Source: an uncultured Erysipelotrichaceae bacterium
Lineage (GTDB): Bacteria > Bacillota_I > Bacilli_A > RF39 > UBA660
DNA: 64,000 nt
Reading direction: 5' to 3'
Assembly: GCA_902801525.1 (NCBI GenBank)
Contig: CADCIN010000004.1
Coordinates: forward strand, 16,948 to 80,947
Positions within the stretch are counted from its first letter, which is position 1, and every line of letters begins with the position of its first letter. Below, piece after piece: positions 20,085-53,723 of the stretch. The notes below the pieces were generated by a model, which saw only the letters and a list, made by a program, of their open reading frames with translations, was not told the DNA's origin and did not search any database. The position numbers and the translations under genes are program-made.

Positions 20085-21602
20085 CTACTTATTAACAATT
20101 CTTTGAAATAAAGCTACAGGAGTTGATAAAGAATATTCATTTTCCTCAACAAATCCAAGATTTTTAACAAAGTTATTTAATTGATCAGATATTTTTTTAC
20201 TGGTATCAGGTATAAATGGTTCTAAAAATACACCACATACTCTAATTGATTCTAATAAATTATATAAAACTGTTTCTAGTCTATCTTTACTATTGTCATC
20301 TTTTGCAAGAACCCAAGGTGTTGTAATATCAATATACTTATTACTTAATCTTAGTAAATTAAAAATTTCCGTAACAGCATCACTAACTTGTAATTTTAAC
20401 ATCTTCTCTTCTACATTTGTTTCAAGTTCATTAATATTATTAATAAATTCCAAGTCATCTTTATTATTAACTTTTTTATTAGTTATTTTACCATCAAAAT
20501 ATTTATTTCCCATTGAAATAGTTCTTAGAACTAAATTACCTAAAATATTTGCTAAATCTCCATTTATTCTTTCTTCAAGTAATTCAAAAGTAATATTACC
20601 ATCGTTGGCAAATGGAATTTCATGAATTAAATAATATCTAACTGCATCAACACCATATTTTTCTACTAGTTCATCTGCATAAATAACATTTCCTTTTGAC
20701 TTACTCATTTTATCATTGTTCATTAAAAGCCAAGAATGCCCAAATACCATTTTTGGAATTGGTAAATCCAAAGACCATAAAAAGCATGGCCAGTAAATAG
20801 TATGAAATCTAATAATGTCTTTTCCAATTAAATGTAAATCAGCAGGCCAATATTTTTCAAAAGTATCACTTTGATATTCAACATCATAACCAATATTAGT
20901 AATATAATTTGTTAAAGCATCAAGCCAAACATAAACAACATGTTTAGAATCAAAATCAACAGGTATTCCCCATGAAAATGAAGTTCTTGAAACACATAAA
21001 TCTTGTAAACCAGGTTTAATAAAATTATTTAACATTTCATTTCTTCTAGATTCAGGCTGAATAAAATCAGGATTATTTTCAATAAATGATTCTAATTTCT
21101 TTTGATATTTAGAAAGTTTAAAGAAATAAGCTTCTTCACTAGCTTCATGAACATCTCTTCCACAATCAGGACATTTTCCATCGACCAATTGAGATTCAGT
21201 CCAAAAAGATTCACAAGGTGTGCAATAAAGTCCTTTGTATTCACCTTTATAAATATCACCTTTATCATACATTTTCTTAAAAATATGTTGAACAACCTTT
21301 TCATGAACAGGATCAGTAGTTCTAACAAATTTATCATAACTGGTATTCATTAAATCCCAAATTCTTTTTATCTCACTTGAAATATTATCTACATATTCCT
21401 TAGGAGTAATTCCAGCTTCTCTAGCTTTAATTTCAATTTTTTCTCCATGCTCATCTGTACCAGTTTGAAAATAAACATCAAATCCTTTTAATCTTTTATA
21501 TCTTGCAATCGCATCAGCAAGTACTACTTCATAAGTATTACCAATATGAGGTTTACCAGAAGTATATGCAATAGCGGTACTAATATAAAACTTATTTTCC
21601 AT
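20085..21602 (-). CDS. metG: Methionyl-tRNA synthetase, short form without the C-terminal tRNA-binding domain
   Basis: HIGH (KPHIGNTY), Zn knuckle CPDCG and KMSKS. True ATG (MENKFYIS) preceded by GGAGGAAT. The 22 upstream ORF-track codons overlap the T-box leader. Confidence 0.95.
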   Translation of the reverse strand: MENKFYISTAIAYTSGKPHIGNTYEVVLADAIARYKRLKGFDVYFQTGTDEHGEKIEIKAREAGITPKEYVDNISSEIKRIWDLMNTSYDKFVRTTDPVHEKVVQHIFKKMYDKGDIYKGEYKGLYCTPCESFWTESQLVDGKCPDCGRDVHEASEEAYFFKLSKYQKKLESFIENNPDFIQPESRRNEMLNNFIKPGLQDLCVSRTSFSWGIPVDFDSKHVVYVWLDALTNYITNIGYDVEYQSDTFEKYWPADLHLIGKDIIRFHTIYWPCFLWSLDLPIPKMVFGHSWLLMNNDKMSKSKGNVIYADELVEKYGVDAVRYYLIHEIPFANDGNITFELLEERINGDLANILGNLVLRTISMGNKYFDGKITNKKVNNKDDLEFINNINELETNVEEKMLKLQVSDAVTEIFNLLRLSNKYIDITTPWVLAKDDNSKDRLETVLYNLLESIRVCGVFLEPFIPDTSKKISDQLNNFVKNLGFVEENEYSLSTPVALFQRIVNK

Positions 21603-21806
21603 AATATTCCTCCATTCATAAAATAAAAAAATATTATAAATATAAGGACGTCTAATACGCGGTACCACCTTATTTTATAATATTTCTATTATACACTCTT
21701 ATTTGTTAACGCCATCTACGTTTATGTTTACATATCAACATAACTGTTCAAAAGCCATAGTATTATATTAATAATTATCTTTTTCACCAACCAAGACTCT
21801 CTAAAA
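21603..21806 (-). promoter_or_regulatory. T-box riboswitch leader of metG
   Basis: The minus strand reads AATAAGGTGGTACCGCG (21674..21658), the conserved T-box sequence. An AGAGAG stem-I start lies at ~21802. An ATG triplet sits in the candidate specifier region (ATACTATGGC). A predicted antiterminator bulge UGGU is followed by a T7 run. Confidence 0.8.
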
Positions 21807-21866
21807 ATTATATAATATAAACCTCTTTTTCAAAACATTTATAAAGGAATTCTAACATAAAACTAA

Positions 21867-31516: not shown

Positions 31517-33280
31517 TTATTCAAATTCAACAACATTTTCAAATAAATTAATTGTATCATTATTAATTATATCATTATTTTCTTGAACTTCAAATACTTC
31601 TTCAGGTTCTTCAACAAAATTATATTTAACACCTGATTTTAAATTTGAAATAAATTTATTTTTTTCTTCATTCCATTTTTCATTTGATAATATAACAAAG
31701 CTTTTATTAGAATTAGTAATTTTATTATAAATATCTGTAATATTCTTTATATTATCAAGATTTTGATTAACTGCAGATTGATACTCATAAGATAAAACTA
31801 TATTTTCATCACTAACCATACAAATTTTAGCATCTAAAAGTTCATTTATAATATATCCAATTTGCTGATCATAAATATAATCATTCAATGATTTAAATTT
31901 ATCCTGTTCCTCTATCAACAATTGTTTATTAGCCTTTGCAAATGTATTATTAAGTCTTGTAGATAATATTTCTTCAAAATTTAAAGGTAAATTAGAACTA
32001 ATAACTTTATTTTTTAACTTATCATTACTTTTCTTACTGTAACCATTATTTTCTTTTATGAGAGAGTTATCTGAATCAATATTTTTATTTTCATTATTTA
32101 TTTGAATTATCATATCGTTATTCATATCATTGTTATTAACAATCTTATTATCTTTTGAAGCTTTATAATTATCACGAACATTAGTTTGAGAGTGCTTAAT
32201 GTTATTAATATTGTCATCATTCACATTATTATTATTTGATGAACTTAAAGAATTATTAATATAATTTAATATAAGCATTTCAATATTTATTTTAACATTT
32301 TCACTTTTTCTAATATTAGATAAATTTGTATTGAATAAATTAATTAATTCAACTATTAATTTAATGTCATATTTAGGTTTAATATTATTTACATAATAAT
32401 CAACCATAACATTACGAAGATAATAAATAATTTGAACAATAATTTGAGAAAGATTTTTACCTCGATCATCAAACTCTTCAACCATTTTTAAAACTGAAGA
32501 AACATCATTATTAAAAATATAAATACAAAAATTATTTATCTCTGTTAATGTAATTAATCCATTTATTGAATAAAAATCATCAATAGTAATCTTATCAGAA
32601 GAAAAAGAACTTAATTTATCTAGCAAACCAATTGCATCTCTTAAACCACCATCTGAATTTTTAGCAATTTGATCTAGGACCTCATCATCAATATTAATTT
32701 TTTCCACATCAGTAATATATTTTAATCTATTAAATAAATTATTATTTGATATTTTTTCAAAATTAAAACATTGACATCTAGAAATTATAGTTTCAGGAAC
32801 TTTTTGATAATCGGTAGTAGCTAAAATAAAAATTACATGTTCTGGTGGTTCTTCTAAAGTTTTTAATAATGCATTAAAAGCTCCAATTGAAAGCATATGA
32901 ACTTCATCAATAATATAAATTTTGTATTTTAACATTGAAGGAACCAAAGATACTTTATTTCTTAGTTCTCTTATTTCATCTACACCATTATTTGAAGCAG
33001 CATCAATTTCAATAATATCTACACATTCTTTATCAAAAGAATGATTACACTTATCACAATTTCCACAGGCATCACCATTATTATTGTTTTCACAATTAAC
33101 AGCTCTAGCAAATATTTTAGAAATAGTTGTTTTACCTGTTCCTCTAGGTCCAAAAAATAAATAAGCATGAGAAAAACGATTATTAACAATTGAATTTTTT
33201 AAAGTTTTAATAATTGGTACTTGTCCTACAACATCTTCAAAGTTTTTAGGTCTATATTTTCTATATAAAGCTTGATACAT
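31517..33280 (-). CDS. dnaX: DNA polymerase III gamma/tau subunit
   Basis: YRKYRP, GPRGTGKTT and a Zn module (CGNCDKC). Asn-rich low-complexity middle. ATG (MYQALYRKY) preceded by GGAG. Confidence 0.9.
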   Translation of the reverse strand: MYQALYRKYRPKNFEDVVGQVPIIKTLKNSIVNNRFSHAYLFFGPRGTGKTTISKIFARAVNCENNNNGDACGNCDKCNHSFDKECVDIIEIDAASNNGVDEIRELRNKVSLVPSMLKYKIYIIDEVHMLSIGAFNALLKTLEEPPEHVIFILATTDYQKVPETIISRCQCFNFEKISNNNLFNRLKYITDVEKINIDDEVLDQIAKNSDGGLRDAIGLLDKLSSFSSDKITIDDFYSINGLITLTEINNFCIYIFNNDVSSVLKMVEEFDDRGKNLSQIIVQIIYYLRNVMVDYYVNNIKPKYDIKLIVELINLFNTNLSNIRKSENVKINIEMLILNYINNSLSSSNNNNVNDDNINNIKHSQTNVRDNYKASKDNKIVNNNDMNNDMIIQINNENKNIDSDNSLIKENNGYSKKSNDKLKNKVISSNLPLNFEEILSTRLNNTFAKANKQLLIEEQDKFKSLNDYIYDQQIGYIINELLDAKICMVSDENIVLSYEYQSAVNQNLDNIKNITDIYNKITNSNKSFVILSNEKWNEEKNKFISNLKSGVKYNFVEEPEEVFEVQENNDIINNDTINLFENVVEFE

Positions 33281-33304
33281 ACATTCCACTCCATTCAATT
33301 ATAT

Positions 33305-33313
33305 ATTATACCA
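33305..33313 (-). promoter_or_regulatory. Extended -10 promoter element for dnaX
   Basis: The minus strand reads TGGTATAAT about 25 nt upstream of the dnaX ATG. No good -35. Confidence 0.45.
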
Positions 33314-33380
33314 TATAAAGTAAAGAGTTTTTTTAGAAAATTATATTTTTTCAACAATTTATATTTTAACTAAAAAAAAT

Positions 33381-33394
33381 ATTTCCCGGGAAAT
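33381..33394. promoter_or_regulatory. Noc-binding-site (NBS) palindrome, exact core consensus
   Basis: ATTTCCCGGGAAAT is identical to the 14-bp B. subtilis NBS consensus. It matches 15/16 of the extended TATTTCCCGGGAAATA. Confidence 0.6.
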
Positions 33395-33426
33395 GTTTTA
33401 AAAAATTAAATAACAAAATATAAATT

Positions 33427-33440
33427 ATTTCCCAGGAAAT
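33427..33440. promoter_or_regulatory. NBS-like palindrome with one central mismatch
   Basis: ATTTCCCAGGAAAT. With flanks it reads TATTTCCCAGGAAATA, 15/16 to the extended NBS. It ends 6 bp before parS-1. Confidence 0.5.
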
Positions 33441-33446
33441 ATTATA

Positions 33447-33462
33447 TGTTTCACGTGAAACA
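33447..33462. promoter_or_regulatory. parS: parS site 1 (perfect palindrome)
   Basis: TGTTTCACGTGAAACA, an exact match to the parS consensus TGTTNCACGTGAAACA. Confidence 0.85.
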
Positions 33463-33551
33463 TTTTATTAATCTAATATATTCTATTCATAATGCATATA
33501 ACACAAAGTTAATCTTCAATCCAATTACTTTTCAAATAATATTTCTCTTTA

Positions 33552-33567
33552 TGTTCCACGTGAAACA
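33552..33567. promoter_or_regulatory. parS: parS site 2
   Basis: TGTTCCACGTGAAACA, identical to the canonical B. subtilis parS. Confidence 0.85.
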
Positions 33568-33656
33568 TATTTCTACATCAAGTATATTTTAATCTAAAAA
33601 CAATATTACATCATTATTCTCCGTTTTGATTATATTTCACATATTATTTCTTTTCA

Positions 33657-33672
33657 TGTTTCACGTGAAACA
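33657..33672. promoter_or_regulatory. parS: parS site 3 (perfect palindrome)
   Basis: TGTTTCACGTGAAACA. Confidence 0.85.
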
Positions 33673-33762
33673 TATTTCTATCATCAAGTATATTTTAATC
33701 TAAAAACAATATTACATCATTATTCTCCGTTTTGATTATATTTCACATATTATTTCTTTTCA

Positions 33763-33778
33763 TGTTCCACGTGAAACA
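33763..33778. promoter_or_regulatory. parS: parS site 4
   Basis: TGTTCCACGTGAAACA. Confidence 0.85.
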
Positions 33779-33868
33779 TATTTCTACATCAAATATATTT
33801 TAATCTAAAAAACATTATTACACCATTATTCTCCGTTTTGATTATATTTCACATATTATTTCTTTTCA

Positions 33869-33884
33869 TGTTCCACGTGAAACA
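33869..33884. promoter_or_regulatory. parS: parS site 5
   Basis: TGTTCCACGTGAAACA. Confidence 0.85.
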
Positions 33885-33975
33885 TATTTCTATCATCAAG
33901 TATATTTTAATCTAAAAAACAATATTACTCCATTATTCTCCGTTTTGATTATAGTTCACATATTATTTCTTTTCA

Positions 33976-33991
33976 TGTTTCACGTGAAACA
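33976..33991. promoter_or_regulatory. parS: parS site 6 (perfect palindrome)
   Basis: TGTTTCACGTGAAACA. Confidence 0.85.
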
Positions 33992-34233
33992 TATTTCTAT
34001 TTATCAAAAATATTTTATTCTAGATGATTAATAGATATAGTCTTTTTATGTATAAAATTTATATATATTTTTTTAATTCTAAATATACTTTTATAATAAT
34101 TTTGTAATTTCAATTAAATAAATTCAACAAATATTTTTTTCATTTATAACATTTCCATAAATATATTTCATTAGATAAAAATTATATATTGTTATACTCC
34201 TCTTTAATTCTATTTCAAATACTATTTCTTTTT

Positions 34234-34251
34234 ATTTTTCACGCAGAACAT
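34234..34251. other. Decayed parS remnant at the tadA-proximal end of the array
   Basis: ATTTTTCACGCAGAACAT versus ATGTTTCACGTGAAACAT (4 mismatches). The upstream flank still resembles the repeat unit (tatactcctctttaattctatttcaaatactatttcttttt). Confidence 0.5.
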
Positions 34252-34285
34252 ATTTTTTAACTAAAAAAAAAGAAGATAATTTCTA

Positions 34286-34732
34286 TCATCTTTTTAACAT
34301 GAAATATTCATTAATTATATCTTTAACTTGATATATATATTTATCAACAAAAATATAATTTATAGATGGATTATTATCATTATTACTTAAAATCATATTA
34401 TTAATAAACTTAACATTAGGATCACTATTTTCCAGGAAATAATATAAATTTCTTATTCTAGCTTGCTTTATAGCAGAAGCACACATAGCACAAGGCTCTA
34501 ATAAAACATATATATCACAATCATTTAATCTCCAATTATTATACTTCTTTTCACAGTATCTAATAGCATTTATTTCAGCATGACATGTTACATCATTATT
34601 CGATTCTTTAGTATTATGAGTAATACAAATTATTTTATTGTTTTTAACAATCGCAGCACAAACAGGCACTTCATCTTCTAAAATTGCAGTTTTTGCTTCT
34701 AAAATTAATTCGTTAAATACTTTTTCAACCAT
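34286..34732 (-). CDS. tadA: tRNA-specific adenosine deaminase
   Basis: CDA zinc motifs HAEINAI and PCAMCA. ATG (MVEKVF) preceded by AGGAG. The ORF-track N-terminal extension runs into the SRP RNA. Confidence 0.9.
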   Translation of the reverse strand: MVEKVFNELILEAKTAILEDEVPVCAAIVKNNKIICITHNTKESNNDVTCHAEINAIRYCEKKYNNWRLNDCDIYVLLEPCAMCASAIKQARIRNLYYFLENSDPNVKFINNMILSNNDNNPSINYIFVDKYIYQVKDIINEYFMLKR

Positions 34733-34762
34733 AAAATTACTCCTAATTATTAAAATAAAAAA

Positions 34763-34835
34763 GATGCACATAATTAGAGGTTCTTAAGGCTGCTATCTTC
34801 CGATTCTGACCTGGTTAAAACATAATTATTGCATC
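34763..34835 (-). ncRNA. ffs: Signal recognition particle RNA, short 4.5S type
   Basis: The minus strand reads GAUGCAAUAAUUAUGUUUUAACCAGGUCAGAAUCGGAAGAUAGCAGCCUUAAGAACCUCUAAUUAUGUGCAUC. The core ACCAGGUCAGAAUCGGAAGAUAGCAGCC matches the universal domain IV (E. coli ACCAGGUCAGGUCCGGAAGGAAGCAGCC) with a GGAA tetraloop. The ends pair (GAUGCA/UGCAUC and AUAAUUA/UAAUUAU). A U-run follows. Confidence 0.85.
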
Positions 34836-34841
34836 GAAATT

Positions 34842-34870
34842 ATTATATAAAATTTTATTTTTTTTGTAAA
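34842..34870 (-). promoter_or_regulatory. Sigma-A type promoter of ffs
   Basis: The minus strand reads TTTACA-17 nt-TATAAT. This places the predicted start at ~34835, the first base of the SRP RNA terminal helix. Confidence 0.65.
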
Positions 34871-35017: not shown

Positions 35018-35026
35018 TTATCCACA
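35018..35026 (+). promoter_or_regulatory. DnaA box (perfect consensus)
   Basis: TTATCCACA, in the gyrA-ffs spacer. Confidence 0.5.
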
Positions 35027-35072: not shown

Positions 35073-37628
35073 TTATTCTTCTGACTTAGTTTCTTCAGTA
35101 TTTTCTATTATTAAATCTTTATTTTCTGATTCTTCACCATTAGAATCATCAACTTTATCAACAAGAGCAACAGTAGAAACTTTTTGATCATCTTTAAGAT
35201 TTATTAATCTTACACCTTGAGTTGCTCTTTTTAATGTAGATATTTGATTCATTGGCATTTTCATAATTACTCCATAGTTAGTAATAATCATTAGATCAAC
35301 AGATTCTTCATTTTCAACATCTATACATTTAAGAGAAACCATCATACCATTCTTTTCAGTAACATTAAGTGCTTTAACACCTTTACTACCTCTATGAGTT
35401 AATCTGTATTCATCAATTGCAGTTTTCTTTCCATAACCATTTTCAGTAACAATAAGTACTAATTCATTAAGTTTTACAACCTCAGCACCAACTACTATAC
35501 TATCACCAAGATCAATTCCTTTAACACCAGATGCTCCACGACCCATAACTCTTACTTCATCTTCAGTAAATCTAACCATACGACCATTGCTTGCACCAAT
35601 TATTATTTCATCATGACCAGAAGTCTTTCTAACACTAATTAATTCATCATTTTCTTTAAGAACTATCGCAATTTTTCCACTCTTTCTGATATTTTCAAAT
35701 TCACGAACATTTGTTCTTTTTATTAATCCTAACTTAGTCACAAACATAAGATTTTCAATAGTTTCATCGCCATCAGTATAACTGATCATAGAACTAATTT
35801 TTTCATCTTTTTCTAATTGAAGCAAATTAATAATTGGTAATCCCTTAGATTGTCGACTATATTCTGGAATTTCATAACCCTTCATTCTATATACTCTTCC
35901 TTTGTTAGAAAAGAACATAATATAATCATGAGTTTTCATTGAAATTAATTGTTCAGCAAAATCCTCTTCATTAGTAGACATACCTTTAATACCAACACCA
36001 CCTCTATTTTGAGTTCTATAAGTATCAGATTTTAATCTCTTAATATAACCATTATGAGTAAGAGTAACAATAATATCATCAATAGGTATTAGTGATTCAT
36101 CTTCAATATAATCAATTGCAGTCATATCAATAGAAGTTCTTCTTTCATCACCAAATCTATTTTTAATTTCTAACATTTCTTTCTTAATAATATCTAAAAC
36201 CATTTGTTCACTAGCTAAAATTTCTTTATAATTAGCAATTTTAATTCTTAATTCATTTAATTCATTTTCAATAGTATCCTTAGACATATGAGTAAGTCTT
36301 CTAAGTCTCATATCAAGAATAGCTTGAGTTTGAACATCATCTAAATTAAATCTTTCCATTAAAGTATTTTTAGCAGTTTCATCATCATCACTACCTCTAA
36401 TAATCTTAACAACTTCGTCAATATTATCAATAGCAATACTTAAACCTTCTAAAATATGTGCTCTTTCTTCAGCTTTCTTTAAATCAAATTGAGTTCTTCT
36501 ATAAATAACTTCCTTTTGAAAATCAACATATTTAGAAATAATTTTATTTAAACCTAAAGTTTTTGGTGTTCTATCATCAATCATCATGAAATTAATACCA
36601 TAAGTTATTTGAAAATTAGTATGTTTATATAAATTATTCAATACAACTTGTGGATTAGCATCACGTTTTAATGTAATAGTAATTTTAACACCATTTTTTA
36701 GATCAGTATGATAATCGGAAATACCTTCTATTACTTTGTTATGAACAAGTTCGGCGACCTTATTTTTTAAATCTAAAGTATTAACACCATAAGGAACTTC
36801 AGTAACAACAATAGTATGATGGTTACCATGTTCTTCAATAGTTGCACGACTTCGAATTGTAATAGAACCTTTACCAGTTTCATATGCTTTTTTAATACCA
36901 GAATTACCTAAGATAATACCACCAGTAGGGAAATCTGGTCCTTTAACATATTGCATTAGACCCATAGTATCAATCTCAGGATTATCAATATAAGCAACAC
37001 AACCATCAATAACTTCACATAAGTTATGAGGTGGAATATTTGTTGCCATACCAACAGCAATACCCATTGTTCCATTAACTAAAATATTAGGATATCTAGA
37101 TGGTAAAACAGAAGGTTCTTTAGCAGTAACATCAAAGTTGTCATCCATATCAACAGTATTTTTATTAATATCTTTTAATAATTCAAGTGATAATTTAGAT
37201 AAACGTGATTCAGTATAACGCATTGCTGCAGCACCATCACCTTCAATATTACCAAAGTTACCATGACCATCTACTAAAATATATCTTTCATTAAAACTTT
37301 GAGCCATTCTAACCATAGCTTCATAAATAGAAGAATCACCATGTGGATGGTAATGACCCATAACATATCCAACTGTTGTAGCTGATTTTCTATGAGGTTT
37401 ATCAGGAGTATAACCACTCTCATACATTGACCATAAAATTCTTCTATGAACAGGCTTTAAACCATCTCTTAAGTCAGGTAAAGCACGTGATGTAATAACA
37501 CTAATAGCATAATCTAAGAAAGAATCTCTAACTTCTTTTACAATATTATTTTCAGATAAACTATCTCTTTCATGAAATACATCTGTTTTATTTTCAATTT
37601 CTTGTTCGTTTACTTCATTATTATCCAT
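35073..37628 (-). CDS. gyrA: DNA gyrase subunit A
   Basis: [23 protein letters not shown] (active-site Tyr) and a C-terminal beta-pinwheel. 851 aa. Confidence 0.97.
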
Positions 37629-44102: not shown

Positions 44103-44364
44103 CTCCCCACAAGATAAATAATTTAAAAATAGTGTACATTAAATTGTGAAAAAAATAAACAAAAAAATTCAAAAAATAATAATTCACAACTATTCCACAA
44201 TTTTTTCAACAAATTAAATCTAAATATAACAACAAAAAAATAAGTTTTCCACATTTTCCACAGATTTTTTAAACACATACGTCAAAAAGTATTCCACAAG
44301 ATTGTGAATTAAGTTAAAAAAAATAAAATATAATCATTTTATATATAAATAATAAAATTTTTAA
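44103..44364. other. oriC: oriC, dnaA-upstream DnaA-box cluster
   Basis: Tandem TTTTCCACATTTTCCACA (44245..44262). TATTCCACA at 44191..44199 and 44290..44298. TAATTCACA-type boxes at 44180..44188 (+) and 44303..44311 (-), and further TTCACA variants. The strand switch of all genes occurs here. Confidence 0.8.
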
Positions 44365-44394
44365 TTGACAAATAACTGTGAATTTTATTATAAT
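44365..44394 (+). promoter_or_regulatory. Sigma-A type promoter of rpmH
   Basis: TTGACA-18 nt-TATAAT, about 30 nt upstream of the rpmH RBS GGAGGTGG. Confidence 0.65.
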
Positions 44395-44425
44395 AAGATA
44401 GATTTATGTCTGGAGGTGGAAAAAA

Positions 44426-44548
44426 ATGAAAAGAACTTATCAACCAAATAATCGTAAAAAAGCCAAAAAATTAGGTTTCTTTGCACGTAAAAAAACAAAT
44501 ATTTTAAATCGTCGTCGTCGTAAAGGACGCAAAACTCTTTGTAAATAA
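44426..44548 (+). CDS. rpmH: 50S ribosomal protein L34
   Basis: 40-aa ORF not in the track: [40 protein letters not shown]. Canonical L34 start MKRT.QP and [16 protein letters not shown]. Confidence 0.93.
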
Positions 44549-44557
44549 TAAAATAAT

Positions 44558-44586
44558 ACCGCTGATAAATTCAGTGGTTTTTTTAA
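44558..44586 (+). terminator. Rho-independent terminator after rpmH
   Basis: ACCGCTGA-TAAAT-TCAGTGGT (8 bp including one G-U), followed by T8. Confidence 0.7.
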
Positions 44587-44610
44587 ATTAATGAGAGGAA
44601 AGTGTTTTTA

Positions 44611-50675: not shown

Positions 50676-50704
50676 TTGAAAAAAACTTGAAAATCAAGTA
50701 TAAT
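50676..50704 (+). promoter_or_regulatory. Sigma-A type promoter of noc
   Basis: TTGAAA-17 nt-TATAAT. It covers the TTG that the ORF track used as the start. Confidence 0.6.
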
Positions 50705-50749
50705 AACTATATAGGTAAAAATAAAAAGAATAAAAGTGAGGGAAATATT

Positions 50750-51967
50750 ATGATCTCAGAAGAAATAAAAAATGAAGTTGTCTATTTATATTTAGATGAT
50801 ATAATTCCAAATAGATTTCAACCAAGAGAAGTATTTGATGAAAAAGCTTTAAAAGAATTAGCAGTTTCAATTAAAGAACATGGAGTAATACAACCAATTA
50901 TTGTAAGACGTGCGAATAATAAGTATGAAATTATTGCAGGTGAAAGAAGATATAAAGCATCAGCCCTTGCAGGTGCAACTAAAATACCAGCCATTGTAAG
51001 AAATTTGGACGACAAAGAAGCTGCAAAAGTAGCACTTCTTGAAAACTTACAAAGAAAAAATCTTAATGCTATTGAAGAAGCAAGAACATATCAAAAAATA
51101 TTAGAACTTGATCAAATGACACAAGAAGAACTTGCAAAAACAATGGGTAAAAGTCAATCAGCAGTTGCTAATAAGATAAGATTGTTATCTCTTCCTATGG
51201 AAGTACAAGATGCCCTATTAAAAGAAAAAATTTCAGAAAGACACGCTAGAACACTTGTAAGTATAGATGACAGCAAATTACAACAAGATTTATTAAAGAA
51301 AATTATATCTGAAAAAATGAGTGTTAGAAAACTTGAAGAAGAAATAAAAATGTTAAAGGAAAATGATAAAAAAGGTGATGATGCAAGTATGGATAATCAG
51401 TCTATGTCAATTAATCAAGACACGATAAGTGTTAATAATGTTCAGAATCAAGTTCCACAATATATAAACTATGGAGAAGTTGATAATGATATTGATAATG
51501 AAGAAAATGATTATTTTAATAAAACACCACAAAGTTTTGGAAATATTGATTTAGAACAAATAAAATCATCTGCAAGTGATATTAAACCAAAAGATGTATC
51601 ATTCCAAACATCACTTGATAGCATGCTAAACATTGCAAGCAAACCTGTAGATAATAATAATGTTGAAAATAAAGTAGAAAAAGAAACTTCAAGTTATGAA
51701 TCTCCTGCAGAAAAGATAGATAGAGAAAGTAGTGAAAATAATTTAAGTTTGAATCAATACTTTAACAATGCACCGACAATACCTGAACAAAATAATAATG
51801 ATAATAAAAACCTTGCAGATCAAACTGTTACACCAGCTGATATTCCAAGTGCAATACAATCTCTTAGAAATACAGTAAATAACATTAAAAACCATAATAT
51901 AAATATTCAAATTGACGAAATGGATTTTAATAGTTCATATCAAATAATAATTAAGATAGAAAAATAA
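50750..51967 (+). CDS. noc: Nucleoid occlusion protein Noc (ParB paralogue) with a long low-complexity insertion
   Basis: ParB N-domain IPNRFQPR and GERRYKA. HTH GKSQSAVANKIRLL. KISERHARTL and C-terminal YQIIIKIEK match Noc rather than Spo0J. ATG preceded by AGTGAGGGAAA. About 150 aa of Asn/Asp/Ser-rich insertion (~51361..51835). Confidence 0.8.
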   Translation: MISEEIKNEVVYLYLDDIIPNRFQPREVFDEKALKELAVSIKEHGVIQPIIVRRANNKYEIIAGERRYKASALAGATKIPAIVRNLDDKEAAKVALLENLQRKNLNAIEEARTYQKILELDQMTQEELAKTMGKSQSAVANKIRLLSLPMEVQDALLKEKISERHARTLVSIDDSKLQQDLLKKIISEKMSVRKLEEEIKMLKENDKKGDDASMDNQSMSINQDTISVNNVQNQVPQYINYGEVDNDIDNEENDYFNKTPQSFGNIDLEQIKSSASDIKPKDVSFQTSLDSMLNIASKPVDNNNVENKVEKETSSYESPAEKIDRESSENNLSLNQYFNNAPTIPEQNNNDNKNLADQTVTPADIPSAIQSLRNTVNNIKNHNINIQIDEMDFNSSYQIIIKIEK

Positions 51968-52063: not shown

Positions 52064-52849
52064 ATGGGAAAGATTATTTCGTTAGTAAATCAAAAAGGTG
52101 GAGTTGGTAAAACAACTACAAGTATCAATCTTTCTGCATCATTAGCAGTATTAGGAAAAAGAGTATTATTAATTGACCTAGATCCTCAGGGAAATACAAC
52201 TACTGGTGTGGGAATAAATAAGGGTGATATAGAAAGAAGCATATATGATGTTTTAGTAGGATCATGTAAAATAACAGATGCAATGATTAAGACAAAATAT
52301 AAGAATCTTTATGTATTACCAGCAACAATTAATTTAGCAGGATTAGATATCGAATTAGTAGAAAAAAGTAAACAAGAAAAAGGATTTCAAAAAGGTGAAC
52401 AATTAAAAAACTCATTATCAGATATAAAGGATAGTTTTGACTATATAATAATTGATTGTCCTCCATCATTAGGAGTAATAACAACAAATGCTTTAACTGC
52501 ATCAAATTCAGTAATTATACCAGTTCAATGTGAATTTTTCGCATTAGAAGGAATTACACAATTACTAAAGACAGTTATGCTTGCACAAAAATCCTTAAAT
52601 CCAACTTTAGATATTGAGGGAGTTCTCCTAACAATGCTAGATTCAAGAACAAACTTAGGATTTGAAGTAGTAGAAGATATAAGAAAATTCTTCAAAGAAA
52701 AAGTTTATAATACAATTATTCCTAGATTAGTAAGATTAACAGAAGCTCCATCACATGGAGAACCAATAATAGCATATGATCCAAAAAGTAGAGGATCTGA
52801 AGCATATTTAAATTTAGCTAAGGAAGTGATTGAAAGAAATGGAGAATAA
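52064..52849 (+). CDS. parA: Chromosome partitioning ATPase ParA/Soj
   Basis: Deviant Walker A NQKGGVGKTTT, DLDPQGN, and IDCPPSLG. Confidence 0.95.
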   Translation: MGKIISLVNQKGGVGKTTTSINLSASLAVLGKRVLLIDLDPQGNTTTGVGINKGDIERSIYDVLVGSCKITDAMIKTKYKNLYVLPATINLAGLDIELVEKSKQEKGFQKGEQLKNSLSDIKDSFDYIIIDCPPSLGVITTNALTASNSVIIPVQCEFFALEGITQLLKTVMLAQKSLNPTLDIEGVLLTMLDSRTNLGFEVVEDIRKFFKEKVYNTIIPRLVRLTEAPSHGEPIIAYDPKSRGSEAYLNLAKEVIERNGE

Positions 52850-53723
52850 TAATACAAAAAGAAGAGCTCTTGGAAGAGGTCTTGAAGAATTATTTTACAA
52901 TGAACCAATAGACTATAATAAAGTAGAAGAAAAAATACTAACCGAATCAACTAAAGATGAAATTCAAAATATTAAAATATCTGAACTAAGAAGTAATCCA
53001 TATCAGCCAAGAAAAGTATTTGATGAAAATGCATTAAATGAATTAGCAGTATCAATTAAAGAACATGGTGTTTTTCAACCAATTATTGCCAAAAAAAGCG
53101 TAAAAGGTTACGAAATAATAGCAGGTGAAAGAAGAGTTAAAGCATCAGAACTTGCAGGATTAGAAGAAGTACCTGCTATAGTAAAAGATTTTACTGATGA
53201 AGAAATGATGGAAATAGCTCTTTTGGAAAATCTTCAAAGAGAAAATTTAAATGCTATTGAAGAAGCAAATGCTTATAAAAAACTACAAGAAAATCTTAAG
53301 ATAACACAAGAAGAATTAGCATCAAGACTCGGAAAAAGTAGATCACATATTACTAATATGATTGGACTATTAACTCTTCCAGAAGAAGTTCAAAAAGAAA
53401 TTTCTAACAAAAATATTACCATGGGACATGCCAGAGTATTAAGTAAATTAGAAGATAAAAATCAAATTAAAGAATTAACATATAAAATTAAAGATGAAGG
53501 ATTAAGTGTTAGAGAATTAGAAAATTTAACATCATCACCAGAAAAATTTGCAAGAACTCATAAGGTTAAAAAACAAATAAATGAAGAATATTCATATATT
53601 CAAGATGAATTATGTGAAAAATTAGGAACAAAAGTAAAAATAAAAAGTAATAAAATTGAGATTAGTTTTGTTAATGGAAATGACTTAAATCGTATTCTAG
53701 AAGTTATGAATTTAGATAAATAG
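52839..53723 (+). CDS. parB: Chromosome partitioning protein ParB/Spo0J
   Basis: N-terminal ALGRGLEELF, PYQPRK and GERRVKA. HTH GKSRSHITNMIGLL, ITMGHARVL, and C-terminal IEISFVNGNDLNRILEVM. ATG overlaps the parA stop and is preceded by AAGGAAGTG. Confidence 0.93.
   Translation: MENNNTKRRALGRGLEELFYNEPIDYNKVEEKILTESTKDEIQNIKISELRSNPYQPRKVFDENALNELAVSIKEHGVFQPIIAKKSVKGYEIIAGERRVKASELAGLEEVPAIVKDFTDEEMMEIALLENLQRENLNAIEEANAYKKLQENLKITQEELASRLGKSRSHITNMIGLLTLPEEVQKEISNKNITMGHARVLSKLEDKNQIKELTYKIKDEGLSVRELENLTSSPEKFARTHKVKKQINEEYSYIQDELCEKLGTKVKIKSNKIEISFVNGNDLNRILEVMNLDK

Follow-up and report, generated by a model that had tools for sequence, protein, structure and literature searches.

The sites bound by the partition protein ParB (parS) and those bound by its paralogue Noc (Noc-binding sites, NBS) keep to different places in the standard picture, parS lying near oriC and NBS being spread widely (PMC7383237). 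What, then, is to be made of a locus at which the two stand side by side? The DNA analysed, 64 kb from an uncultured, low-GC Erysipelotrichaceae bacterium of the gut or rumen (contig CADCIN010000004.1, positions 16,948 to 80,947; referred to below as the window), carries six parS and two NBS in the gap between tadA and dnaX. Both motifs are in statistical excess, the cognate genes with their specificity residues are encoded in the same window, and a mixed cluster of the two site types recurs at the same locus across a clade. We consider it likely, judging from these features, that the gap is the main centromere-like locus of the chromosome and a loading site for Noc.

Sites in the gap between tadA and dnaX

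Six matches to the parS pattern TGTTYCACGTGAAACA were found in the gap, each of them exact with respect to the 16-bp palindrome TGTTNCACGTGAAACA (positions in Table 1), with start-to-start steps of 105, 105, 106, 106 and 107 bp. When up to two mismatches were allowed across the 64 kb, the pattern gave 12 strand-matches against 0.05 expected from shuffled sequences, and no seventh parS appeared anywhere in the window. The NBS core ATTTCCCGGGAAAT is present once in perfect form (NBS1) and once with a single central mismatch (NBS2). At the same tolerance three NBS were found against 0.19 expected, the third, at 34427 within tadA, being the only one away from the array. The 16-mer of NBS1, TATTTCCCGGGAAATG, departs from the consensus at its last base only. 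NBS2 ends 6 bp short of parS1, ie the two sites are 21 bp apart from centre to centre. Since the GC skew changes sign at ~44-46 kb and a pair of adjacent DnaA boxes stands at 44245-44262 near dnaA, the array is placed about 10 kb from oriC, a proximity expected of parS.

The gap itself (33281-34285, 1005 bp by the gene calls of an independent assembly) has no open reading frame (ORF) longer than 48 aa and no Rfam match at the gathering threshold. There is no DnaA box inside the array, and a search of the gap for promoters and terminators gave no more than chance would, with 20 promoter-like matches against 20.1 expected. A preliminary description of this DNA, made from the letters alone, had listed the six parS as three perfect palindromes and three C variants with the spacings given above, had placed both NBS, and had taken the gap to be gene-free and the motifs to be unique in the 64 kb. 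Every coordinate was correct, the length of the longest ORF agrees with a gene-free gap, and the search with mismatches added only the NBS-like sequence in tadA to the list.

ParB and Noc of the window

The proteins expected for these sites are encoded across oriC, where the gene calls place noc, parA and parB 17-20 kb from the array, as had been described. In Caulobacter numbering the specificity positions are R173 and G201 in ParB and Q173, K179, K184 and R201 in Noc, a lysine at either 179 or 184 being sufficient for Noc specificity (PMC7383237). The window ParB reads GKSRSHITNMIGLLTLP...MGHAR, ie it has the parS-type residues R173 and G201. The window Noc reads GKSQSAVANKIRLLSLP...ERHAR, giving Q173, K179, S184 and R201, which are residues of the Noc type. 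The earlier assignment of the two paralogues as cognate to their sites is therefore borne out at these positions. The motifs GERRxK, which belongs to the cytidine triphosphate (CTP) pocket, and ENLQR are kept in both proteins. The best PDB matches of the window Noc are Noc structures (7nfu at 2.9e-62, 7ng0 and 7ol9), ahead of the structures of ParB/Spo0J, and its score against the NCBIfam noc model is 300.5 bits, just under the cut-off of 315.

The DNA-binding and C-terminal dimerisation domains of the window Noc are separated by a low-complexity linker of ~170 aa in which N, Q, D and S are abundant. The N-terminus of the protein would be MKIKYNNYIG if the TTG at 50687 is the start codon; the alignment to 7ol9 begins at residue 1. 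The annotated TTG overlaps a promoter-like TTGAAA...TATAAT, so that the true start, and with it an N-terminal helix, is uncertain. With that start the N-terminus would resemble MKHSFSRFFG, the membrane-targeting helix of B. subtilis Noc, and a helix of this kind in the window Noc is a possibility only.

Mixed clusters in related genomes

Pairs of parS 91-121 bp apart were sought in one genome of each species, which gave at least 119 loci from many phyla. Among the matches listed, which do not include the species of the window, 16 low-GC loci have a parS cluster between gyrA and tadA or dnaX in a neighbourhood like that of the window. Their proteins are 40-87% identical to those of the window, they are labelled uncultured Bacilli, Mycoplasmatota or Candidatus Onthocola, or are mis-binned, and no similarity of their spacers to the window spacers is detectable. 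This set was chosen for parS pairs only, not for NBS, and perfect NBS cores nevertheless occur in about 10 of the 16 loci, within or beside the parS cluster in about eight. In one of them (L076) six parS alternate with six NBS. The set has 10 perfect NBS in the 19.2 kb that lie within 300 bp of parS and 7 in the remaining 92.7 kb (Fisher p = 1.3e-4, for loci that are not independent). In the 119 listed loci of all phyla, which together amount to 845 kb, NBS with at most one mismatch were confined to the low-GC loci and one other Bacillota locus.

When metagenomes were searched for parS with an NBS core no more than 30 bp away, at least 120 loci were obtained. The GC content is 0.19-0.38 in all 120 composite loci listed, and homologues of gyrA, tadA, dnaX, ybaB or recR adjoin the cluster in 116 of them. 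The arrangement of the sites varies. Nine parS and nine NBS alternate strictly in L241 (site order NPNPNPNPNPNPNPNPNP), again with a 106-bp unit; L221 has 8 parS with 9 NBS, and the order in L158 is NPNNPNN... (N, NBS; P, parS). The cluster can lie between gyrA and tadA, between tadA and dnaX, or in both places. The relatives were also compared for copy number, as the preliminary description had proposed, and those for which both flanks are present, 60 in number, have a median of 4 parS (range 1-11) and 2 NBS (range 0-9). With its order NN-PPPPPP the window cluster belongs to this family of mixed clusters as one of its variants, and the pairing of parS with NBS is non-random, since it recurs in many related genomes.

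Mixed parS/NBS clusters are thus a conserved feature of a low-GC Bacilli-like group, and apparently an undescribed one. No description of them was found in the searchable full-text literature, a coverage outside which most subscription journals fall; the preliminary description likewise knew of no locus in which the two are fused.

Perfect NBS also occur inside or right beside dnaX, 1-2 kb from the parS cluster, in several relatives (L126 at 7172, L128 at 7115, L206 at 3083, L165 at 2677, L110 at 2701 and L108 at 4860) and just outside dnaX in two more (L193 at 3216, L225 at 281). The dnaX of the window has no NBS at up to two mismatches. Three loci labelled 'uncultured Muribaculaceae' (L034, L068 and L076) have a GC content of 22-37%, the Bacilli-type synteny gyrA-tadA-dnaX-ybaB-recR and parS/NBS clusters, and are probably mis-binned or mis-labelled.

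Two site classes and their spacing

The related clusters contain 778 sites in the shared frame TxTTYCzC-GzGRAAxA, in which parS and NBS differ at two positions per half-site. Of these, 466 are pure parS, 304 are pure NBS and only 8 (~1%) are hybrids, a split which fits two discriminating proteins under purifying selection. The flanks that extend the NBS core to a 16-mer are T..A in 302 of 303 clade sites. Among the 42 NBS variants with one mismatch in related clusters, 33 have the CCCAGG form, as does NBS2 of the window.

Neighbouring NBS and parS seldom lie closer than 21 bp from centre to centre, with 2 such cases among 158 unique pairs compared with the 31 expected for a uniform distribution from 15 to 45 bp. 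The distances have modes at ~26 and ~36-37 bp with a trough at 31. The samples are related, and these figures, like those for the site classes, are indicative only. They suggest that the two dimers must fit side by side and that there is a preferred rotational setting, and they would fit simultaneous occupancy by ParB and Noc.

A third motif, TTWTCCACA, which resembles a DnaA box, lies 0-3 bp from parS in 21 of 136 related loci. Compared with the flanks it is enriched 4.8-fold in the vicinity of parS, and 49 of the 65 copies within 150 bp of parS are those at 0-3 bp. The window array has no copy of it. Examples are L129 209-252 (5 repeats), L195 2526-2569, L216 8538-8562 and L076 6050-7200; in L129 and L195 a parS-box-NBS module, packed into ~45 bp, is repeated. 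The motif also resembles a parS half-site and could be either a DnaA box or such a half-site.

Origin and regularity of the array

The tandem repeat covers more than the 16-mers. Tandem Repeats Finder (TRF) reports a unit of 106 bp (Table 1), each unit consisting of one parS and a 90-bp spacer, and the spacer behind parS1 is unrelated to those of the repeat units. The six-fold array arose through recent tandem duplication of this unit, and the even spacing in the window follows from that duplication. A decayed seventh unit, recognised by eye from its unit-like flanks, lies 245 bp past parS6, beside a probable tadA terminator hairpin and T-run at ~34262-34295. A decayed NBS inside the repeat unit is not demonstrable, the spacers being without homology between species.

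Dense periodic parS arrays are common on the chromosomes of public genomes and occur in several phyla. There are 7 parS with a period of 99 bp in a Bacteroidetes genome (L044), 8 at 46-47 bp in a Lachnospiraceae genome (L052), 10 at 55 bp in an uncultured Bacilli genome (L085), 5 at 38 bp in Bdellovibrionales (L057), 4 at 52 bp in Acidobacteriota (L036) and 4 at 48 bp in a Bacillota genome (L099). These arrays are strictly periodic. Chromosomal arrays of this kind, with 4-10 sites and periods of 38-99 bp (L044, L052, L057, L083, L038, L036 and L099), are also present in Patescibacteria and further groups.

Two explanations bear on the regularity of the window array. It might be an artefact, ie a repeat collapsed or expanded in short-read metagenome assembly, and of the same-species metagenome assemblies found through the window recR, which occurs in several, one (L002) ends after parS2 and another (L003) has an N-gap after parS3. 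However, a metagenome contig from another sample (L001), with 8 mismatches to the window over 16.6 kb, contains both NBS and all six parS, L003 independently confirms NBS1, NBS2 and parS1-3, the copies, 94% identical, are told apart by diagnostic substitutions, and comparable arrays are present in related species. The array structure is reproducible between assemblies, and there is only a very slight chance that it is artefactual. The preliminary description had put all six sites on one DNA face, and the period might be a selected architecture that arranges the ParB dimers in this way. Spacings of 105-107 bp, as in the window, correspond to ~10.0-10.2 helical turns, a 106-bp unit is also found in an unrelated species (L241), whose spacers cannot be aligned with those of the window, and adjacent parS across the clade show a mild excess of spacings at 105-119 bp together with a weak 10.5-bp periodicity (Rayleigh nR^2 = 4.0); Fourier and Rayleigh tests of the spacing are to be read as weak, the loci being related and the distance range truncated. 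Against this, the regularity follows directly from duplication of the 106-bp unit, adjacent spacings in the clade run from 38 to 260 bp, and other arrays have periods of 38, 46-47, 48, 52, 55, 57, 61-62 and 99 bp beside the 106 bp found here. Homologous loci do not keep to integer multiples of ~10.5 bp, so that helical phasing is not a conserved property, and the variety of periods argues against it as a general design. Nor should the helix face matter much under the sliding-clamp model, in which ParB leaves parS after loading. Selected phasing is accordingly improbable as the reason for the ~105-bp period. No similarity was found between the spacers of the window and those of L241 or other species, and common descent of the shared 106-bp period is therefore not demonstrable.

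In the same-species assembly L002, parS1 (~139-154, equivalent to 33447-33462 in the window) reads TGTTTCACGTAAAACA, a G-to-A change. This polymorphism fits redundancy among the sites of the array.

Comparison with known systems

Clusters of parS near the origin have been published for Corynebacterium glutamicum, with 10 parS in 35 kb (PMC7083940), and for Caulobacter crescentus, with 5-7 parS within ~5 kb, 8 kb from ori (PMC5815017); Streptomyces coelicolor and Listeria innocua, with ~22 parS, are cited in the latter paper. Those clusters have in common with the window the same 16-bp consensus, redundant sites near oriC, ParAB encoded near oriC and, for the window by analogy, a presumed role in ParB nucleation, spreading and recruitment of SMC. 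They differ in extending over kilobases of unrelated sequence, whereas the window has six sites in 0.55 kb, in one gene-free gap and derived from a recent 106-bp duplication, and has NBS within the same cluster. Given the kilobase-scale clusters in these two papers and the periodic arrays among the at least 119 loci of our scan, the premise of the preliminary description that chromosomal parS are dispersed single copies was too strong.

The nucleoid-occlusion system of Bacillus subtilis and Staphylococcus aureus, in which Noc acts through NBS (PMC7383237, PMC5540599, PMC4331003), has the 14-bp core found in the window and a Noc paralogue, encoded next to parAB, with Q173, K179 and R201. NBS are characteristically dispersed over the chromosome, with the exception of the ter region. 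Its N-terminal amphipathic helix is only possible in the window Noc, which differs further in the serine at 184 and in the long low-complexity linker. Pairing with parS has not been described for that system, whereas in the window and its relatives NBS stand tens of bp from parS and often alternate with them.

In the sopC centromere of plasmid F, SopB, a member of the ParB family, binds each of twelve tandem repeats of 43 bp. The window array resembles it in being made of direct repeats (4.6 copies of the 106-bp unit by TRF) that each hold one inverted-repeat site for a ParB-family protein. It differs from sopC in being chromosomal, with clade-wide synteny, in its distance of 17-20 kb from parAB and in its use of the universal chromosomal parS sequence. 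The array does not lie on a plasmid or phage beside a parAB of its own; the order is dnaA-dnaN-recF-gyrB-gyrA-ffs-tadA-[array]-dnaX-ybaB-recR, with parAB 18 kb off. Nothing similar to the gap was found among the plasmid and phage records, and the composite NBS-parS pattern is absent from 2.9 million viral contigs. On these two results an origin from a mobile element, whether plasmid, phage or virus, was rejected.

Proposed function of the locus and alternative explanations

In the model systems ParB directs partition, controls ParA and recruits SMC, and Noc tethers DNA to the membrane and occludes division (PMC7383237, PMC4331003, PMC5540599, PMC7083940). Binding, clamping, membrane tethering and SMC loading are carried over here from the ParB and Noc of B. 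subtilis and Caulobacter. By this analogy ParB dimers would nucleate on the six parS, close as CTP-bound clamps and slide onto the flanking DNA, building a partition complex on which ParA could act and to which SMC could be recruited. Noc dimers would start from the neighbouring pair of NBS, form clamps with CTP as well, and hold this origin-proximal DNA at the membrane. A single locus of ~0.6 kb, ~10 kb from oriC, would thus assemble both ParB-family complexes, and the six-fold array may provide redundancy and a higher loading rate.

Several observations weigh against a joint ParB and Noc locus of this kind. The window Noc lacks the lysine at position 184. Each window NBS is one base off the 16-bp consensus, the deviation being at the outermost position in NBS1 and at a central position in NBS2, and the 21 bp between NBS2 and parS1 is at the short extreme of the clade distribution, where co-occupancy may be sterically tight. 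The exact copy number rests on short-read assemblies, and short reads have difficulty with this region, two further assemblies of the species breaking or having a gap inside the array. The p-values are optimistic, the related loci not being phylogenetically independent. About 6 of the 16 relatives not selected for NBS have none in the stretch retrieved, so co-loading of Noc is not obligatory for a parS cluster, and NBS are also present outside clusters (34 in 649 kb of flanks, ~1 per 19 kb, including the recurrent dnaX site), so their co-location could reflect descent or a permissive site. The last two points also favour an alternative in which only the parS array is functionally tied to the locus, the NBS being members of a genome-wide set that are here by descent or because the gap tolerates them, and ParB and Noc do not interact. 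Moreover NBS may be mutated duplicates of parS, from which they are four substitutions away, and tandem duplication supplies spare copies. However, NBS are ~7-fold enriched near parS in the set not selected for them, they alternate strictly with parS in many species, distances below 21 bp are avoided and the two modes of the spacing are ~10 bp apart, and the sites have stayed perfect palindromes while the spacers diverged past alignment. Taking both sides together, we regard the alternative as rather unlikely, and the odds between functional coupling of the two clamps and co-location by descent as about even. Even less probable is the boundary suggested in the preliminary description, a one-sided roadblock or cap formed by the NBS pair and halting ParB clamps before the promoter and gene of dnaX. 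Both window NBS are indeed on the dnaX side, and a promoter-like TTAAAA-18-TATAAT facing dnaX follows 12 bp downstream of NBS1; tightly bound proteins are reported to block the sliding of ParB clamps. Nevertheless, promoter-like matches in the gap are at the chance level given above, and in relatives the NBS may lie towards gyrA, flank the parS on either side or separate each parS from the next, in clusters that occupy either gap. Since they are interleaved with parS in relatives, the NBS are not a one-sided cap, and a roadblock in the window is quite improbable. The interpretation in the preliminary description thus stands as regards the consensus parS and NBS, their cognate paralogues and the non-random pairing of the sites, but not as regards helical phasing, the cap and the dispersed single copies.

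The joint locus proposed here might be one case of something wider. It is possible, though we put it forward as a tentative suggestion somewhat more doubtful than probable, that Noc has been built into the centromere across a large low-GC Bacilli-like clade, in the form of stereospecifically spaced parS-NBS modules at one conserved locus beside gyrA, tadA and dnaX, the centres being ~26 or ~36 bp apart and the sites never overlapping, and in some species with the DnaA-box-like motif as a further part. If so, the clamps of ParB and Noc would assemble together into a kinetochore-like hub, tethered to the membrane, through which segregation of the origin would be linked to the control of division and perhaps to the initiation of replication.

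ParB with parS and Noc with NBS are the textbook example of how a DNA-binding protein, once duplicated, can gain a different site and a different task. The two sets of sites are described as spatially separate in model organisms, whereas the clade described here interleaves both at one origin-proximal locus. It is a natural system for the study of cooperation, competition or blocking between two CTP-dependent sliding clamps on shared DNA, and offers a possible mechanism for membrane anchoring of the origin region. It also provides a concrete route for the origin of NBS, ie tandem duplication of parS followed by four substitutions, and the parS/NBS arrangement may preserve the state in which NBS first arose from a duplicated parS. 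The locus is short (~0.6-1 kb) and the two proteins are known, so the idea can be examined directly, in vitro or with E. coli as host, and no culture of the bacterium itself is needed.

Gene neighbourhood

The window has a GC content of 24%. To the left of ~44.3 kb the minus strand carries, in order, dnaA, dnaN, recF, gyrB, gyrA, the gene for the signal recognition particle (SRP) RNA, tadA, the gap, dnaX, ybaB, recR and bofA. On the far side of oriC are rsmG, the noc-like gene, parA and parB. Rfam confirms the SRP RNA gene upstream of tadA, where it had been placed by the preliminary description. The features are collected in Table 1.

Table 1. Features of the window, numbered from its first nucleotide.
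Feature	Position	Strand	Remarks
dnaX	31517-33280	-	flanks the gap, downstream side
NBS1	33381-33394		perfect 14-bp Noc-binding core ATTTCCCGGGAAAT
NBS2	33427-33440		ATTTCCCAGGAAAT, one central mismatch
parS1	33447-33462		TGTTTCACGTGAAACA, perfect palindrome
Tandem repeat, 106-bp unit	33530-34022		TRF, 4.6 copies, 94% identity
parS2	33552-33567		TGTTCCACGTGAAACA, C variant
parS3	33657-33672		TGTTTCACGTGAAACA, perfect palindrome
parS4	33763-33778		TGTTCCACGTGAAACA, C variant
parS5	33869-33884		TGTTCCACGTGAAACA, C variant
parS6	33976-33991		TGTTTCACGTGAAACA, perfect palindrome
Decayed seventh parS unit	34236-34251		TTTTTCACGCAGAACA, 4 mismatches; flanks unit-like (by-eye alignment to unit consensus)
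tadA	34286-34732	-	flanks the gap, upstream side; true start gives 148 aa, vs 161-aa ORF
Small SRP RNA (ffs)	34750-34845	-	Rfam 60.1 bits, gathering threshold 40; upstream of tadA
gyrA	35073-37628	-	between gyrB and SRP RNA
dnaA	42705-44102	-	gene call, origin side
Probable oriC	44103-44601		intergenic region beside dnaA, change of sign of GC skew (switch at ~44.2-44.6 kb)
noc	50687-51967	+	ParB paralogue, Noc-type Q173, K179, R201; GERRYK motif
parA (soj)	52064-52849	+	gene call
parB (spo0J)	52830-53723	+	R173 and G201; GERRVK motif

A perfect DnaA box, TTATCCACA, is present at 35018-35026 in the short intergenic region between gyrA and ffs, ~1 kb from the array. Elsewhere in the window a T-box leader was recognised at 21641-21842 on the minus strand (Rfam 97.4 bits), upstream of a 527-aa ORF at 20085-21668.

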